This document shows positions 1-7,992 of a DNA stretch of 64,000 nucleotides, in pieces. Where the stretch lies: assembly GCA_963797275.1 (NCBI GenBank), contig CAWCOT010000006.1:163469-227468 (forward strand), in the 5' to 3' direction. The stretch is from an uncultured Chloroflexia bacterium. GTDB lineage: Bacteria > Chloroflexota > Anaerolineae > Anaerolineales > UBA11579. The notes below the pieces were generated by a model. That model had not been told where the DNA came from. It saw only the letters and a program-made list of their open reading frames with translations, and did no database searches. A program made the translations under genes and the position numbers. Each line of letters starts with the position of its first letter. Position 1 is the first letter of the stretch.

Positions 1-669
1 ATGCCGGGCCCGATGTCGTCCGAGAAATGGAAGAGGCCTAGCTCCTTGCCCAGCTTACGGTGGTCGCGCTTCCTGGCCTCCTCCTGGCGCCACAGGTACT
101 CTTCGAGTTCCTGCGGCGTCTCCCAGGCCGTGCCGTAGATGCGCTGCAGCTGCTTGTTGTGCTCGTCGCCGCGCCAGTAGGCCCCGGCGATGCTCATCAG
201 CTTGAACGCCTCCGGGTTGACCTGCCCCGTGGATTTGACGTGCGGCCCGCGGCACAGGTCCGTGAAGCTGTCCTGCGTGTAGAACGAGATCTCCGGCTTT
301 TCCTTGAGCGGCTCGCCGTTCTCGTCCACGCCCCCGGCTTCCAGACCCTCAATCAGCTCCAGCTTGTAGGGCTGGCTCCTTGAACTGCTTCTTGGCCTGC
401 GCCGCCGAGACGACTTCCTTCTTGAACGCAAAGTCCTTGCCAATGATCTCGCGCATGCGCTTTTCGATCACGGGGAAATCCTCCGGCGTCAGCGCCCGCG
501 GCAGGTCGAAGTCATAGTAGAAACCATCCTCGATGGGCGGCCCAATGGCCACCTTGGCCTGGCTGTCCGGGAACATCTCAGTGACCGCCTGCGCCATGAT
601 ATGCGCCGCAGAATGGCGGATTTTATATATTTCCGTGTCTTGGTATCGTTCTGTCTTCTTTTTTGCCAT
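1..669 (-). CDS. thrS: threonine--tRNA ligase, 5' portion; gene runs off the window at base 1 and has an apparent 1-nt frameshift near 372-375
   Basis: Minus ORF 349..669 reads [29 protein letters not shown]...[12 protein letters not shown]. My translation of the minus strand of 1..371 in the neighbouring frame continues [14 protein letters not shown]...[10 protein letters not shown]...[24 protein letters not shown]...[15 protein letters not shown]. This is typical ThrRS. The two frames join only if one base is removed around GAGCCAGCCCTAC. Confidence 0.9.
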
Positions 670-693: not shown

Positions 694-736
694 GTCATTG
701 CGAGGAGTGCCCACGAAGTGGGCCGACGAAGCAATC
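694..736. repeat. short GC-rich palindromic repeat unit (GTCATTGCGAGGAG-hairpin-GACGAAGCAATC) inside the thrS 5' UTR
   Basis: gtcattgcgaggagtgcccacgaagtgggccgacgaagcaatc shares its flanks with the unit at 8023-8072. It has an internal GCCCAC/GTGGGC hairpin. Confidence 0.5.
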
Positions 737-763
737 TTCGAGCCACTCGAGCAACGCCGCTTT

Positions 764-793
764 AAAAAAAGTTCGCCCATGTATAGGGCGAAC
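764..793 (-). terminator. T-box leader terminator hairpin (GUUCGCCC-loop-GGGCGAAC plus U7)
   Basis: Reverse complement of 764-793 is GTTCGCCCTATACATGGGCGAAC followed by TTTTTTT. It sits immediately 3' of the T-box core. Confidence 0.8.
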
Positions 794-1100
794 TATATAG
801 TCCGTGGTTCCACCTAACTTGATCGGTTAAATTGGCTAGCCTGTTTAATCGAATTTTGAATTAGCCGATTAGCTGATTATCGATCATCTCGTATGCCTGC
901 TAACGGAGGCTGCCGTTCGCCTTACTAAGTCGAAGCTCTTAGGGCTCTTGCTTGTGGGGGGTTTTCGGGCTGGCTGGCTTGCGGAGGCTTGCAGTTAGTG
1001 AAGGCGACTGTTTAACGTCGGCGTCACAGGCCTCGGCTCCCTGGTAACCGCTTCCAACCTTAGTCGTCCCGGTCAACGTGTGATGTTCAGTTGTGGTTCG

Positions 1101-1129
1101 ATTATACGGCGTGTGGGCTGAGAGGGCAA
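1101..1129 (-). promoter_or_regulatory. sigma-70-like promoter for the thrS leader (TTGCCC, 17 nt, TATAAT)
   Basis: Minus strand reads cTTGCCCtctcagcccacacgccgTATAATcgaacc. The same architecture recurs at the second T-box leader. Confidence 0.6.
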
Positions 1130-1362
1130 GCGCAGAGTGCTACTTCGTGAGTTTTTCTTATGCGCCTATTTGCTTATCACTTTAATGGTTTTAGGACTTA
1201 GGCTTACGACTTTCCGTATCAATGCGACATGCCTTTCACAGGTTGAGTAAGGCATCATTCATTACATTAACTTCCCCCAAAGAGTTACCCTCAGCTAGAA
1301 ACGATTAGTGTTGTATCTTTTGCGCTTCCAGGGCATTATCCTGTTTGTCTTTACAACCCTGC

Positions 1363-1945
1363 CTACGTAATCAGGATCATAATGTGATCGAAAACCGGGC
1401 TGCTTATGGTAAAAGAACGTGGCCGTTCTGATTTTGATGTAGGCATACCTAGTTTGAGAAGGATTTGCTTTCCTGAAAACAAGGAGTTACCTGTAAATGT
1501 TTGCGCAACAATTACAAGAATCTTATCCTTTTTGGAAAGCGAAATATCAGGATTGTTAAGTTCAATCTTTTCTACACGAGCACGAGAATCGAAGCTAGAA
1601 TGCTTTTTGTAATAAACAGTGGAATTGATAACTTCAAGTTTTATCTTTTTGGTTTGGGACACTCCCCCTTTGACAATTACGCTTTTTTGCATTTCTTGAC
1701 TTAATAGATCACTACAAATTTAACCTGCAGCGATTGCCCTCCCTCCCTATACCAATGATGACAGTAGGAAAAAATCCGGAGTCGTTTAACTTTTCAACTA
1801 AGTTTCGTTGGGCTTCCTGAACTTGTTCCCACGGTATAGATTTGTCTACAAGTAATTTCCAAACACCTTGCCAACTGTCGCCCCAAAACTGGGGTATAGC
1901 GACCAAAAAACCAACTATTGTAATAAAAATGACGAAGTTATCCAC
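1363..1945 (-). pseudogene. membrane-anchored phosphoribosyltransferase-like gene, disrupted by a frame change near 1738-1748 plus an in-frame TAA at 1720-1722
   Basis: ORF 1712..1945 has an N-terminal hydrophobic helix, then SIPWEQVQEAQRNLVEKLNDSGFFPTVIIGIGREG, which is PRTase-like. ORF 1363..1692 contains KILVIVAQTFTGNSL, a degenerate PRPP-loop-like motif. The adjacent frame reads G(R)AIAAG-stop. The region is AT-rich. Confidence 0.45.
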
Positions 1946-2019
1946 TATATCCTCCTTTTTCTTTAGTCTTTAGTACGACCAACATCAAAAACCAAAGGGC
2001 CTTAGTCATTTTTTGATAA

Positions 2020-2797
2020 TCAGTCTTTTTTTCCGAATTGCAACATCTGGAAGTTTTCCCCACTAGTCAAAACCAATTTGCTATTGTAGGGGGAGAATGC
2101 TCCTTTACTAATATCAGTATCCAACTCAAAAAACGATTGACCACTAAGTTTCCTTTTTCGCAAAGTGATTAGTTTATGAAGGATAGGATCAGGGAACCTG
2201 TTTACAAAGCCATCGCTTAGCAGCACTGAATTCGTCTCTTTCGTAATCCTAATAACCGCATCTACTATGGAAATTTGAGGTAGCAGGTAATTTTTTTCCA
2301 AGCTCTGCCTTTCTGCTAACTGCCGAATGGCCTCTCTCCGAGGATAGTTCCTTTCAACAATGTCGCGGTCGAATTTTCCATTCTTTGCGCAGTTCCTCGC
2401 TTGGGTAAACGAAAATAGAGAAATCGATAATTTTCTCGGTGGATATATTGTTCAACAAGCCTGCGTGAAGACCCTCTACAATTACGATCGGCTTTGGCGT
2501 AACTCTAACAGGCTTACCGAGAAGTCCGTCAACGTGGCTATATGTAGGGGCAAAAATTGCACGCCCTGATCTAAGAGCCTTAATATGGGAAATTAATTCG
2601 TGGAAATCATTTGCATCAATTTGGTCGGGATACTCGTTTATTTTTTTTCTGTCCGCCCTGCTTCTAAAGTGGTACCCGTCCATGTCTAGTATCGCAACAG
2701 AATTCTTCTCAGCTAGCGAAGCTAGATTTCCACTTAGCGTGGACTTTCCTGAAGAACTTAATCCCGCCACTCCTATTACGAATGATTTGGATTGCAA
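2020..2797 (-). CDS. phosphoribulokinase/uridine kinase family P-loop protein, TTG start, apparent 1-nt frameshift near 2364-2369
   Basis: Walker A GVAGLSSSGKSTL, then LDMDGYH, IVIVEGLH and EELRKEWKIR. Shifting one base continues RDIVERNYPRREAIRQLAERQS-LEKNYLLPQ into ORF 2020..2301. This matches the PRK/Udk WKIxRD...ER motif pattern. Confidence 0.7.
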
Positions 2798-3165
2798 GTT
2801 GATTCCCGATCTATTTGAATTAATTTAATACAAAACCCCTTCGTCATTCTAATCCCCAACTTTGCACCTATGTGCTTCCCGATGTCAGTTTGTGCTCAAT
2901 TTCTGTACTTTACCATTTCGGCCCAACCAAATCACAAAATTTTCTCTAGTCTACAATTCCTAATTCGCCTGGGAGCTATAGCCGAGTGTGACCCGCAGGT
3001 CAGCGCCACGTCCATCTGTTTCCTCAAGCTTGATATTCACCCCAATTCCCCTACCTTCGCTTGCCTCCATGCTAAATATGGGGCTACTGGCTGCGCTACC
3101 CGGTCCTGGCAGAAGCAGGCTGCATGCCAAGAGCAGCACTAAGCCCTTTCATCGTGCCTCACTTA

Positions 3166-3445
3166 TTAGCGTGTAGTCAGATCCTTGTCTTCCATCTCCC
3201 AGGCATGGTCGAGCACGTGATAGGCCGTATGTCGGATCAGGAGCGCAGCGAGCCAATTGCGCGCCATTTTGCCCTGCGCATGAAACTCCCGGATGGCATT
3301 GCAATAAGCATCGCTATGCGCCTTCATTCCCTTGGCGCTCAGCATGGCTTCATCCGGGGTGGCCACGCTGAGCTTCTTAGCCGAGTCTTTCATTGGCAAA
3401 GATGTGCCGCACGATGCCATCCGGTCGTCCTCCACCGCGTGGTTC
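3166..3445 (-). pseudogene. 3' fragment of a DinB-like gene (partial paralog of 5800..6471)
   Basis: High nucleotide identity by eye to 5800-6082. One stretch of about 50 nt is identical: tccatctcccaggcatggtcgagcacgtgataggccgtatgtcggatcagg. The protein tail AKKLSVATPDEAMLSAKGMKAHSDAYCNAIREFHAQGKMARNW...IRHTAYHVLDHAWEMEDKDL matches the full-length copy. There are internal indels relative to the parent and no N-terminal two-thirds. Confidence 0.8.
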
Positions 3446-3454
3446 AGACCGACT

Positions 3455-3725
3455 TAAACAAAAATGCTTGCCCGGTATTGGGGCAAGCATCGCTCGCGGT
3501 TCCACCCAATTTAGCCTGATGTCGCTAGGCTATCTTGTATTGCCTGATATCGGAGGCATCCGGTTCCCTTACTGGCCAAGCCGTGTTTTTTACGGCAGTG
3601 TTCAGGGTTCCGCTCGCGGGTGGTTTTCGTGCCGTTTGGCCTGCAAGGGCTCTCAATCGTTGGCCCTGGCTCCCTGGTGGCTGAGGCGGCAATACTCGTC
3701 CCGGTCGACGCGTGTTCTAAATTGT
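3455..3725 (-). promoter_or_regulatory. second T-box riboswitch leader (putative ACC/Thr specifier) with no aminoacyl-tRNA synthetase downstream
   Basis: Minus-strand RNA has AAAUUGGGUGGAACCGCGAGCG (plus 3491-3513) followed by a terminator. The stem-I-like GACCGGGACGAGUA...CCAGGGAGCC parallels leader 1. GAAAACCA (plus 3621-3628) gives ACC followed by a purine. Confidence 0.75.
3458..3490 (-). terminator. terminator hairpin of the second T-box leader
   Basis: Reverse complement reads ATGCTTGCCCCAATACCGGGCAAGCAT followed by TTTTTGTTT. Confidence 0.75.
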
Positions 3726-3731
3726 GCCCTG

Positions 3732-3760
3732 ATTATACGGCGCGGCGTGATCAAAGGCAA
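3732..3760 (-). promoter_or_regulatory. sigma-70-like promoter for the second T-box leader (TTGCCT, 17 nt, TATAAT)
   Basis: Minus strand reads cTTGCCTttgatcacgccgcgccgTATAATcagggc. Confidence 0.6.
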
Positions 3761-3813
3761 GCGCTGCTTCTCGTCCCGGCAGAGTCAGAAATTCCGGTTA
3801 ATATTAAGGAACC

Positions 3814-4194
3814 ATGGGAACAAAAGAGACTGTGACCAAACCGCGCATCTATGCCATGAGCTTCGCCAGAGTCTATCCCCTTTATCAGGCCAAGGCGGAG
3901 AGGAAAGGGCGCACGAAAGAAGAAGTTGATCAGGTCATTCGCTGGCTGACCGGCTATACCCAGCCAGAGTTAGCCGCCCAACTGGAAAAGCAGACCGATC
4001 TTGAGACCTTCTTTGCGCAGGCTCCCCAACTGAATCCGGCACGCGTTTTGATAACGGGCATGATCTGCGGCGTCCGCGTGGAAGATATCAAGGAACCCAC
4101 CATGCAGGAAATTCGCTACCTGGATAAATTGGTCGATGAGCTAGCCAAGGGGAAAACTATGGAGAAGATTTTGCGGGAAATCCCGCGTTCCTAA
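3814..4194 (+). CDS. DUF2200 family protein
   Basis: [37 protein letters not shown] is the pattern I associate with DUF2200. The ORF is clean. Confidence 0.7.
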
Positions 4195-4209
4195 AGGAGC
4201 TCTTACCAC

Positions 4210-4518
4210 ATGGAAAACAAGAAACTCTATCTGCTGCCCAGCGCCTACATCCCGTTCGCTCTGTCGCTGGCCTCGCTGGCCCTGGTGCTGGGGCATGTGG
4301 CCTTGTACGGCACCGCCCGCCAGGCCGACGAGGGCGCCGCCGCCCATCTCTTCCAGCTCTTCATGGTCGTGCAGTTGCCCATCGCCGCTTACTTCGCCAT
4401 CAAGTGGCTGCCCCGCAAGACCGTGCAGGCCCTACTCGTGCTCGGCCTCCAGGCCCTGGCTTACTTCGCCGCCTTCGGCGCCCTATATTGGTACGAGGTG
4501 CTTAGTCAGGTGCATTAA
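4210..4518 (+). CDS. small integral membrane protein, unknown function
   Basis: 102-aa ORF with three hydrophobic segments and an AAGGAG ribosome-binding site 7 nt upstream. It lies 15 nt after the DUF2200 gene. Confidence 0.6.
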   Translation: MENKKLYLLPSAYIPFALSLASLALVLGHVALYGTARQADEGAAAHLFQLFMVVQLPIAAYFAIKWLPRKTVQALLVLGLQALAYFAAFGALYWYEVLSQVH

Positions 4519-4584
4519 CCGTCCGCCAAACATTGGGATAAACTCTAGGGAATTCACAATAGTTTTCGGTTGGCAAGTTCACAT

Positions 4585-5317
4585 ATGAAACAGTATGAAG
4601 CTGTAATAAAGGTCATGCAACAAAATGGCGGGTTCGCAACATTAGGGCACCTCAATAGAGAGGTCTTAAAAGTACCTGACGTCGAATGGAAAACACAAAC
4701 CCCCTATGCAAGCATTCGGCGTATTGTCCAAGACAAGAGATTTTTCTTCAAGATAAAGCCCGGCTTATGGGCGCTGCTTACGTACAAAGATAAATTACCT
4801 GAGCAACTACAACCGGCTGAAAATATATCAAAGCACCAAGAGCAAATGTATAGCCACTCCTATTTTCAAGGATCTCCTTGTAGAAATCGGTAATTTAAGG
4901 AAATATGAAACATTTGTCCCTAATCAAGACAAAAACAAACTTTTCCTAGAAAGACGACTTGGTGATGTTTGTTCGCCGAACACTTTTTACGAATTTGGTT
5001 ACGACCCGATGGTAAGAAAGGCAAGGACTATAGATGTGAGTTGGTTCAATGACCGAAAGATGCCTATCCGGTTTTTTGAAGTTGAACATTCAACAGACAT
5101 TCAAAATTCCTTGCTGAAATTCATGGAGTTACAAGACTTCAACGTCGGATTTTTTATCGTCGCGGACAGTGCAAGAAAGCGAGAATTCAAAAGCAAATTA
5201 GCCTATTCTGCATTTAAGCCCATAAAGGGGCGTGTCCAATTTCTTGATTATGAAAATCTATCAGTCTTGCATTCAAAAGAATATGAGTATAGATCCCTAG
5301 AGATCGGCTGGTTCTAG
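4585..5317 (+). CDS. winged-helix plus restriction-endonuclease-like (PD-(D/E)xK-like) protein, apparent 1-nt frameshift near 4871-4874
   Basis: N-terminus is MKQYEAVIKVMQQNGGFATLGHLNREVL...IRRIVQDKRFFFKIKPGLWAL. After HSYFQG the next frame continues LLVEIGNLRKYETFVPNQDKNK...TIDVSWFNDRKMPIRFFEVEHSTDIQNSLLKF into ORF 5009..5317. The nuclease assignment is tentative. The region is AT-rich. Confidence 0.6.
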
Positions 5318-5322
5318 TATTC

Positions 5323-5538
5323 TTAGTTCCAAAATTCAACTAAATGGACATTATGATATTCAGCATCTATTTCTGCTTCAGCGTTGTCTTCTGCCAACAT
5401 CCATAGTCTCCCTCCATTTAAGCTGTCAATGTAATCACCAGATTCTTCGACATTTCTATGGCCAAATTCAACTAATTCCTCAACAGAAGAGACAGTTCCA
5501 TTATCATTTAAGGTAACAACATATCTTTTAGCACCCAT
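5323..5538 (-). CDS. small acidic hypothetical protein (71 aa)
   Basis: Internal ATG at 5538 is preceded by GGAGG 7 nt upstream. The product is MGAKRYVVTLNDNGTVSSVEELVEFGH...EYHNVHLVEFWN. The N-terminal extension in the 138-aa track ORF is Arg/Ser/Gly-rich and lies in different base composition. The region is AT-rich. Confidence 0.5.
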   Translation of the reverse strand: MGAKRYVVTLNDNGTVSSVEELVEFGHRNVEESGDYIDSLNGGRLWMLAEDNAEAEIDAEYHNVHLVEFWN

Positions 5539-5799
5539 AGGTATTCCTCCGCAAGTTGAATGTTGCGATCCTACCATTCCCGCGCTATTTCTCATAGCAT
5601 CATTCTCATCACTTCGCCCTTTGGAGGCCGGGCATGAGGGAGATCGCTGTGGCTCTGCGCACCCCGAAGGCAAGCCCTGCGTCTTTCTGAGCAAGCCCTC
5701 AGTCCTCCACCAGCCAATAAGCTGGCCCGAGGAATTCATAGGATTCCGTCTCCCCGAATGCGTCCCCTCTACCAGCTATCTTCGCCAGCCAACTACCTC

Positions 5800-6471
5800 T
5801 TACTTCTTCGTCAAATCCTTATCCTCCATCTCCCAGGCATGGTCGAGCACGTGATAGGCCGTATGTCGGATCAGGTAGCGCAGCGGCCAATTGCGCGCCA
5901 TTTTGCCCTGCGCATGAAACTCCCGGATGGCATTGCAATAGGCATCCCGATGCGCCTTCATTCCCTTGACGCTCAGCATGGCTTCATCCGGGGTGGCCAC
6001 GCCCAGCTTCTTGGCCCAGTCTTGTTCATTAGCAAAGATGTGCCGCACGATCCTGTCCCGATCCCGGCCCCCGCCCCGCGGGCCCTTTTGCAGTTCAGCC
6101 GAGACGCGCGACTTGACCTCATCAAAAAAGGTCCAGCACGCCCGCAGCAGTTTCAACTCGCGTTCAAGCTCTTCTACAGACATGCTTTGCTCGTCGATGC
6201 TCGAGAAGCCAAACGAGATGCCCCAGAAGTCGGTTGAGCCAGGGCCGGTGAAGCGCTCGACTACTTCGGCGTCGCTTAACCCCTTGAACGCGTCGCCCAT
6301 CCCAGCCAGCTTTGCCACGACTGCATAACGGGGGATGTAATCGACCAAGCGTTCCACTGCGGCTTCTTCAGTCTTTGCCCCCCGCTCAAGGCCCGGCCAG
6401 TCCGGTGCAAATGCCGCCATCTTTTTGCCTTTCGGTCCGATTTCCAACAGTACGCGCAACGGTTTTGGCAT
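5800..6471 (-). CDS. DinB-like four-helix-bundle family protein (assignment tentative)
   Basis: Clean 223-aa ORF. The C-terminal RYLIRHTAYHVLDHAWEMED His pattern resembles the DinB superfamily. It is the full-length parent of the fragment at 3166-3445. Confidence 0.6.
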   Translation of the reverse strand: MPKPLRVLLEIGPKGKKMAAFAPDWPGLERGAKTEEAAVERLVDYIPRYAVVAKLAGMGDAFKGLSDAEVVERFTGPGSTDFWGISFGFSSIDEQSMSVEELERELKLLRACWTFFDEVKSRVSAELQKGPRGGGRDRDRIVRHIFANEQDWAKKLGVATPDEAMLSVKGMKAHRDAYCNAIREFHAQGKMARNWPLRYLIRHTAYHVLDHAWEMEDKDLTKK

Positions 6472-6827
6472 GCTTCCTCCACAAAATCATATTTCATTCA
6501 GGCGTGCTAATCAACTTAAATACAGAATACACAGTACCGGGATTATTCCCTCTTTTTCCATTCCCGCCAACTTCCTCCCCCTAAATATCAGCATCCATTC
6601 CTTGACATTCGTGTCCTTTTCGTCCTCATGAATACCTTTCGTGCTACATTCTCCAACACAGTAGCGCCGCCATCAACTTATGACTTACAGCCTAGAGCTT
6701 ACAGTTTATGAAATGCCTCATTTGCCTCGCTTGTCCCACCCCCTGCCCAATTATTATTATTACAACTTTCAGGAGCCATATAACTCAAAGTAGAATATGC
6801 GCATACTCTTCGCCATAAGGAGCTTCC

Positions 6828-7937
<1,110 letters not shown>

Positions 7938-7992
7938 CGAGAGGTAGCACCCGTGGTTGCGAGAAGCGCCAAATTCACGATGGTCGCCGTAG

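Follow-up and report, generated by a model that had tools for sequence, protein, structure and literature searches.

A predicted threonine T-box leader, probably separated from thrS by a strain-specific DNA block in Anaerolineales

Organization of the thrS region

The DNA analysed here is a stretch of 64,000 nt, referred to as the window, to which all coordinates apply. All of the features described below are located on its minus strand. The 5′ part of thrS (1..669, from the ORF list) runs off the window and contains an extra base at position 374, which creates an apparent frameshift. Upstream of thrS and in the same orientation, we distinguished (i) a thrS-proximal T-box leader (leader 2) with its own promoter, (ii) a two-gene cassette, (iii) the 3′ remnant of a gene encoding a 223-aa protein, and (iv) a second, distal T-box leader (leader 1), which is likewise preceded by a promoter. 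A full-length resident copy of the 223-aa gene (5800..6471; protein P0019), recognized from the ORF list, homology and AlphaFold/Foldseek analysis, represents the source family of the remnant.

Two other contigs were used for comparison. The first (ENA contig ERZ25039539:contig_18694; 488 kb; hereafter L001) was found via a sequence-identical 223-aa protein, and the second (ERZ25039533:contig_66096; a 5-kb contig from a sample other than that of L001; hereafter L082) via P0001, a PRK-family protein. ERZ25039533 and ERZ25039539 are samples of one project, in which both of the alleles described below occur. In blastn alignments, L001 is collinear with the window from 16459 to 3428 (99.26% identity) and then from 737 to 1 (98.5%), and L082 is collinear with positions 5677..723 (98.5%), a region which covers the DUF2200 gene, leader 1, the joint, the remnant, both cassette genes and leader 2. 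A block of 2,690 bp (738..3427) is therefore present in the window and L082, and absent from L001. As judged from these alignments, the block apparently represents a strain-level indel polymorphism, seen in a second assembly.

The distal T-box leader

Leader 1 begins after a sigma-70-like promoter, P1 (TTGCCT-17-TATAAT; 3732..3760), which was detected by a consensus scan (10/12 matches) and is identical in L001 and L082. The leader is approximately 270 nt long, and its T-box of type 1 (3476..3717) matches the Rfam covariance model RF00230 over positions 1-219 of 219, with a score of 74 bits (E=4e-15 in a search of 7 kb; 3.7e-14 in a search of the whole 64-kb window). Alignment to the specifier positions of the model indicates the codon ACC (Thr; 3624-3622), within the sequence GAA-A-ACC-A. 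The T-box core, AAAUUGGGUGGAACCGCG, is located at 3512-3495, and an intrinsic terminator (3456..3491), predicted by consensus scan and folding, is composed of an 11-bp stem (3491-3463) with a 7-nt loop, and a U-run (3464-3456). When the 3′ arm was included in the folding, the terminator was formed; when this arm was left out, the RNA adopted the canonical bulged antiterminator, which carries a UGGA bulge. Stem I also folds as expected. The complete T-box leader reported in the preliminary description was thus recovered in full, with promoter, core and terminator all on the minus strand at the positions given here. The Thr (ACC) specifier proposed there is equally well founded, since ACC occupies the specifier loop of the model and is conserved in the thrS leaders of the relatives.

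The sequence of leader 1 is the same in the window and in L082 (74 bits in both). The variant present in L001 (62.6 bits) differs from that of the window only in the distal part of stem I, and the changes at the stem base are compensatory. No tRNA-Thr gene was found in the 64-kb window, whose sole tRNA gene is that of tRNA-Val. The sequence and its folding predict that leader 1 is a genuine tRNA-Thr-sensing T-box transcription attenuator.

The gathering score of RF00230 in Rfam is 93 bits. A default Rfam scan at this threshold reported no T-box, and E-value thresholds were needed to recover the leaders. The leaders adjacent to thrS score 62.6 bits in L001 (see above), and 67.7, 82.3 and 55 bits in the relatives L002, L003 and L004, respectively. 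In general, the confirmed thrS leaders of the clade fall between 46 and 82 bits, all of them below the gathering score, which in consequence overlooks all of the thrS T-boxes observed in this clade of Anaerolineales. The 93-bit threshold is too strict for the clade, and a score below it is no argument against T-box membership.

Leader 1 shares most of its features with the Bacillus subtilis thrS/tyrS paradigm of the RF00230 T-box: a sigma-70-type promoter, a leader of approximately 270 nt, a specifier loop in stem I, the T-box core, a UGGN bulge, mutually exclusive antiterminator and terminator structures, and, in L001, the cognate thrS gene directly downstream. In contrast to this paradigm, its host belongs to the Chloroflexota (Anaerolineales), its score lies below 93 bits, and, in the window, it is located 2.7 kb from thrS.

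The strain-specific block

In the direction of thrS, the order of elements is as follows: the remnant of the 223-aa gene, about 300 bp of DNA of normal G+C content, a PRK/uridine-kinase-family gene, a phosphoribosyltransferase (PRTase)-like gene, and promoter P2 with leader 2. The PRK gene (2020..2797; Pfam PF00485, E=2.7e-20) encodes a protein of 258 aa when intact, and contains an extra base at position 2368 of the window. The PRTase-like gene (1363..1945), broken in the window, was recognized by six-frame reading and a weak match to Pfam PF00156 (E=7.8e-4). The G+C content of this cassette is 37-45%, compared with about 60% in the flanking regions. Exact-protein look-ups of the cassette ORFs gave no match because the copies of the window are frameshifted. 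One frameshift in the PRK gene was therefore repaired by hand before the protein-database search, and the repaired query identified P0001, an intact protein of 258 aa (99% identity) encoded on L082. A homologous pair of PRK and Pribosyltran genes is present in L083. The possibility that the cassette and its neighbours constitute a defence system was rejected, as no PADLOC match was obtained.

Leader 2 (type 2; 763..1085, with its Thr T-box at 781-1085) was identified with RF00230 (46.4 bits, E=5e-8). Consensus scans placed its promoter, P2 (TTGCCC-17-TATAAT), at 1101..1129 and its terminator at 794-770, and its specifier, ACC, is found at 962-960. Judging by these predicted elements, leader 2, with its own promoter, would directly serve thrS in the two-leader strain.

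In the window, thrS starts at position 669, on the same strand as leader 1 and 2.7 kb downstream of it, and is 98.5% identical to the intact gene of L001, whose 600-aa product contains the domains tRNA_SAD, tRNA-synt_2b and HGTP_anticodon. Leader 1 of L001 is situated directly upstream of this gene, at a distance of approximately 70 nt. In the window, thrS stands behind the remnant, the two cassette genes and leader 2. The preliminary description had placed no aminoacyl-tRNA synthetase behind leader 1 and had supposed that the regulated gene might have been lost. This is not supported, in view of the downstream thrS and of the fusion of leader 1 to thrS in L001. The earlier text had also considered that in relatives this leader might immediately precede an intact gene, missing here through misassembly: L001 indeed shows leader 1 on thrS, but L082 identifies the cause as an indel polymorphism, not a misassembly.

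From its predicted elements and its position in both alleles, leader 1 most plausibly belongs to the thrS locus, displaced by the block rather than orphaned. Our main interpretation, to which we assign a probability of roughly 80%, is that leader 1 is the Thr T-box of an Anaerolineales thrS locus, split from thrS by a strain-level indel block. The apparent anomaly of a T-box "with no synthetase" would thereby be removed: it would be a thrS leader displaced by a strain-specific block.

Two lineages of thrS leaders

Leaders 1 and 2 have similar promoters and both contain all of the T-box elements, yet they share only 74% identity over the aligned columns and are separated by large indels. The nearest match to leader 1 is the thrS leader of L086 (79%), and leader 2 most resembles those of L002 (78%) and L088 (76%). 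The 3′ domain, the terminator and a TAATC-rich insertion of leader 2 group with those of L002, L085, L087, L088 and L089. The leader 2 type occurs in five of the six relatives compared, and is thus typical of the clade. A single Thr T-box per thrS, with a conserved ACC position, was found in L002, L003, L004 and L085-L088. By sequence identity, the two leaders appear to be as distant as those of different species whose ThrS proteins are about 80% identical, and one of them is xenologous. A recent local duplication of the thrS leader was rejected, given the 74% identity and the greater similarity of each leader to that of another species. On this point, our results agree with the preliminary description, which had noted the divergence and had ruled out a recent copy.

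In L002, L085, L087 and L088, the interval that runs from a conserved BNR-like gene to thrS is syntenic, but its gene content differs in each of them. It contains, for example, a BglII-type restriction-modification system in L085 and feoAB in L002; in the locus studied here it carries an NmeDI_C-like gene, a DUF2200 gene and the 223-aa gene. This interval is a recombination hot spot.

A scan of GTDB genomes with ThrS showed that the nearest species shares 78% ThrS identity. Among the 80 GTDB loci returned, none carried relatives of leader 2, the cassette, the 223-aa gene or the DUF2200 gene near thrS. A scan of JGI metagenomes with a 26-mer of the thrS 5′-UTR gave 0 matches. A pattern scan of the same resource, with a pattern that fits leaders of the L086 type and not leader 1 itself, revealed 16 Thr T-boxes, all of them more distant, but no close relative of type 1.

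The truncated gene at the joint

Directly after the terminator of leader 1 lie the last 93 codons (residues 131-223; 3166..3442) of a second copy of the 223-aa gene, referred to as copy B, whose product is of the HicB-like/four-helix-bundle kind. The homology at the protein level begins at residue 131, with the motif PRGGG (position 3442), and the DNA of 3176-3415 is 93% identical to the 3′ end of the gene at 5800-6471. Among 120 family members, the remnant is closest to the resident copy, P0019 (89% aa identity), and shares 72-78% aa identity with the other members listed. The reading frame of the remnant is broken by indels in the window, at positions 3388, 3251 and 3241. A hand count of the differences between the remnant and the full copy gave about 15 synonymous and about 7 non-synonymous changes. 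The differences being mostly synonymous, copy B had diverged as a working gene before its truncation.

The first 15 nt of the remnant, CCACGCGGTGGAGGA (3428..3442), constitute the in-frame PRGGG codons and are kept in L001. They differ from the corresponding sequence of the full copy, CCGCGGGGCGGGGGC, at five third-codon positions only, and the segment GPRGGGRDRD is invariant, or nearly so, across the 223-aa family. Differences confined to third-codon positions in CCACGCGGTGGAGGA are, by their pattern, the likely signature of a diverged coding sequence.

Origin of the two alleles

The two-leader arrangement probably came first, and the L001 allele would have arisen from it by a later deletion of 2.69 kb, after which leader 1 was the sole thrS leader. 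The two-leader arrangement itself most likely goes back to an illegitimate joining event, in which a type-1 thrS promoter and leader of foreign origin were linked to the interior of copy B. The recombination joint lies near 3428-3442 (GGAGGA|CGGGAC), and the deletion junction of L001 shows 1 nt of microhomology. L001 is probably a deletion derivative because it has retained CCACGCGGTGGAGGA, which comprises in-frame PRGGG codons and differs from CCGCGGGGCGGGGGC in third-codon positions. Deletion is also favoured because a single junction suffices, and because leader 2 is typical of the clade and its post-terminator motifs cross the junction; these motifs (AGTGG...GATT) run across the corresponding position in L085 and L002 as well. 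The two alleles, one with serial diverged leaders and one with a single leader, may thus offer a natural snapshot of riboswitch leader replacement, in which one deletion would leave a leader of foreign type as the only regulator of the essential thrS gene.

Homology-facilitated illegitimate recombination in bacteria has reportedly been described by de Vries and Wackernagel. As in such illegitimate recombination and deletion events, the locus contains a single novel joint, at which microhomology is minimal or absent, a truncated gene at this joint, and DNA of foreign composition beside a conserved anchor gene; we infer the mechanism from the sequence. No donor of the recombined DNA was identified in the genome and metagenome scans. 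An intact locus of the corresponding lineage B (full copy B, cassette, leader 2 and thrS) was not found in the genome, metagenome and protein searches made.

The reverse history, which we regard as possible and rather doubtful, is that the L001 arrangement is ancestral, and that the 2.69-kb block (gene fragment, cassette and foreign type-2 leader) was acquired from a related lineage, with one end anchored by homology in the thrS 5′-UTR or coding region and the other at a GC-rich microhomology past the leader 1 terminator. The AT-rich cassette does suggest foreign DNA, and, since thrS would remain expressed from the promoter and leader that the block brings along, the insertion would be tolerated. 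Moreover, the sequences that follow the terminators of the two leaders have short matches (GTGG...GA) in common, and if the block had entered an L001-like ancestor by microhomology-guided joining, a GC-rich match at the joint could equally have resulted. However, such an insertion would require that a fragment both composite and non-mobile entered without duplicating or shortening the thrS UTR, and that a non-coding 15-mer of the recipient fitted the PRGGG codons in frame at all 10 first and second positions. The UTR of the donor must also nearly match that of the recipient exactly from GATTGC onward, although the leaders are only about 74% identical, which implies an additional, earlier swap at the same breakpoint. 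Furthermore, the type typical of the clade is that of leader 2, not of leader 1. The thrS 5′-UTR is ambiguous with respect to leader type, as its SD-proximal part resembles both L086 and L088. The finding of CCACGCGGTGGAGGAGATTGC after a native type-1 leader, in lineages that never had copy B, would favour insertion over the deletion that we prefer.

Predicted regulation of thrS

By analogy with known T-box biology, transcripts initiated at P1 would end at the terminator (3456-3491) when tRNA-Thr is charged. With uncharged tRNA-Thr, the antiterminator would form and transcription would continue across the remnant and both cassette genes, to reach leader 2, which would respond to the same signal, and to add to the transcription of thrS from P2. 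A simple consensus scan revealed no terminator-like sites on the minus strand between 3463 and 1129, and the only such sites between leader 1 and thrS are the two T-box terminators. Read-through from P1 into the cassette and thrS is inferred from this absence of predicted terminators. The Thr control of thrS may therefore be split between two gates, of which leader 1 would be the first and distal one, and the cassette would incidentally come under Thr-starvation control.

It can be envisaged that the two-leader arrangement is no short-lived intermediate and has instead been kept by selection, leader 1 having taken on the activation of the horizontally acquired PRK/PRTase-like pair when tRNA-Thr is uncharged, and that complete leaders at thrS are exchanged in natural populations by insertion followed by deletion, with L001 as the completed swap. 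We consider this improbable. If it were true, the T-box would be controlling genes unrelated to amino-acid supply.

The thrZ gene of B. subtilis is preceded by repeated leaders. In a survey of the Bacillota, thrS was the only synthetase gene with tandemly arranged T-boxes (PMC12452182). The locus analysed here resembles these tandem T-boxes in that two T-boxes with Thr specifiers are placed in series toward thrS. Unlike them, the leaders are non-contiguous, with an interval of about 2.3 kb that includes two or three genes, and leader 2 is preceded by a separate promoter. The layout also varies from strain to strain, and the pair appears to have arisen by recombination of diverged leader lineages (74% identity) rather than by local duplication. 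Contiguous tandem T-boxes have no gene between them; here, the remnant, the PRK-family gene, the PRTase-like gene and P2 intervene. A thrS T-box in Anaerolineales is known in kind, and the strain-specific layout is unusual but explicable.

Sequence quality and alternative interpretations

The window contains an ORF of 84 codons that starts with the ATG at 3420, is preceded by GGAGGA at a distance of 7 nt, and encodes the C-terminal helices of the 223-aa protein at its 3′ end. In the preliminary description, this chimeric ORF was considered a candidate target of leader 1, and GGAGGA was noted 7 nt ahead of its ATG. The ORF does exist in the window, but it is not conserved in L082: it arises from deletions of 3 bp and 2 bp, both of which are absent from L082, where the ATG is out of frame. 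The sequence GGAGGA does not appear to be a Shine-Dalgarno sequence, as it simply represents two glycine codons within the conserved motif PRGGG. In view of the window-specific indels and these Gly-Gly codons, we rejected the 84-codon ORF as a gene. The idea that leader 1 is an orphan T-box which has lost its regulated gene, and now controls a small DinB-derived peptide encoded by this ORF, draws on the spacing of GGAGGA and ATG; it is very unlikely, given also the presence of thrS downstream on the same strand, the placement of leader 1 directly on thrS in L001, and the unreliability of reading frames in the window, where similar frameshifts affect thrS, the PRK gene and the NmeDI_C-like gene.

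These frameshifts are caused by extra single bases in thrS (374), the PRK gene (2368) and the NmeDI_C-like restriction-enzyme gene (4873), each of which is intact in the other assembly (L001 or L082). They are probably consensus errors, and for thrS, an essential single-copy gene, a consensus error would be the simplest account. No common sequence motif that might be a sign of systematic error was evident around the extra bases. The window and L082 differ at 77 positions, mostly by single-base indels, with 29 gap openings in 5 kb, and because of these differences they can be treated as independent consensus sequences. Since both are indel-rich assemblies, the exact bases of the joint and the reading frames are uncertain. 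In long-read metagenome assemblies, apparent frameshifts and chimeric ORFs call for a second assembly before they are interpreted.

An assembly artefact as the source of the block is unlikely: that two co-occurring strains were fused into a chimera, one carrying leader 1 directly on thrS and the other carrying copy B, the cassette and leader 2 ahead of thrS, might be suspected from the resemblance of the window and L082 to error-prone long-read consensus sequences and from the presence of both alleles in samples of one project, but it is scarcely credible that the same joint would then appear in two independent consensus sequences with that many differences, and the joint has no long repeat to mislead an assembler, only 15 nt being shared.

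The 223-aa protein family

The remnant had been described as a truncated DinB-like fragment. That it is a fragment was borne out by its 93% DNA identity to the resident gene; the "DinB-like" label is weakly supported, given that it relies on structural modelling and has no counterpart in Pfam. The 223-aa protein matched no Pfam family even at E<=10, DinB (PF05163) and DinB_2 (PF12867) included, and a profile search against PDB sequences gave chance-level matches only. Its AlphaFold model (pLDDT 85) yielded weak Foldseek matches to 1rxq (prob 0.82), 2yqy (0.85) and 3dka (0.35), with E values of about 0.4-1.7 and TM scores of 0.34-0.56 for the four-helix bundles of YfiT, TT2238 and YjoA. The N-terminal domain gave a low-confidence match to HicB-like antitoxins.

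Like the DinB/YfiT-like proteins (PDB 1rxq, 3dka, 2yqy), the 223-aa protein has a C-terminal half that is predicted to form a helical bundle with invariant His residues; unlike them, it has an additional N-terminal HicB-like alpha/beta domain and lacks a Pfam DinB/DinB_2 match. The family, which is unannotated, comprises more than 8,000 homologues, with about 75% identity among the top matches, and four histidines (His144, His203, His207 and His211) are invariant in it.

T-box leaders of the clade

All of the thrS T-boxes seen in this Anaerolineales clade (at positions 781-1085 and 3476-3717 of the window, and in the related thrS loci L001 to L004) score between 46 and 82 bits. The gathering score of RF00230 in Rfam is 93, and therefore none of these leaders is picked up by default Rfam annotation.

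Comparison of leader 1 (window 3476-3717) with its counterpart in L001 (12754-13014), a 99%-identical contig in which this leader directly precedes an intact thrS gene, revealed approximately 17 extra nt in L001, inserted in the 5′ arm of stem I (relative to window 3629-3688), which may be able to form a small hairpin. The base of stem I carries compensatory changes between the two sequences, and outside the insert and these changes the leaders are identical. The L001 variant resembles a mosaic patch, which suggests recombination inside the leader.

T-box leaders were also found in two JGI metagenome contigs, Ga0182027_10451898 (L092, 970-1207; 82 bits) and Ga0315284_10001018 (L094, 8438-8680; 64.7 bits). 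Both contain the specifier region GAAAACCACC (ACC), identical to that of the thrS leader. The gene located immediately 3′ of each is not thrS but panB, encoding ketopantoate hydroxymethyltransferase (Pfam PF02548, E=7.5e-99). The presence of a Thr-type T-box in front of a pantothenate gene is unexpected.

Genes of the thrS region

Between thrS and a conserved BNR-like gene (6828-7937) lies a variable island (window 3760-7940; L002, L085, L087 and L088), whose restriction-modification or other genes differ from relative to relative. L085 has BglII with a methyltransferase there and L002 has FeoAB, and the window contains an NmeDI_C-like gene, with AT-rich DNA at 4570-5740.

The gene at 5800-6471 (minus strand) belongs to a highly conserved family of proteins of approximately 225 aa, with more than 8,000 members, the top matches being about 75% identical. 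The family has no Pfam domain. Its predicted fold comprises an N-terminal HicB-like alpha/beta domain and a C-terminal helical bundle, and its invariant motifs are GPRGGGRDRD and RHTAxHxLDHAWEMEDKDL.

Directly downstream of the remnant of the second copy of this gene, in DNA of normal G+C content, lies a 59-codon ORF (2960-3139, minus strand) with a hydrophobic N-terminus (VLLLACSLLLPGPGS...). This ORF, which matches no Pfam family, may have survived from the genomic surroundings in which the remnant first stood.

In a conserved gene pair (1363-2797, minus strand), the first gene belongs to the PRK/uridine-kinase family and the second is phosphoribosyltransferase-like, its product having a hydrophobic helix at the N-terminus. 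The same pair is present in GCA_024281315.1 (L083, 6001-7486; 43% and approximately 30% identity), and it has no match in PADLOC.

Sequence differences in the window

Single extra bases, relative to L001 or to the independent contig L082, occur in the window at positions 374, 2368 and 4873, where they break thrS, the PRK-family gene and the NmeDI_C-like restriction-enzyme gene, respectively. Positions 684, 3451 and 14378 are also affected, and two more differences are located in the tRNA-Val gene. A search for a common sequence context found none, and all of these are probably long-read consensus errors.
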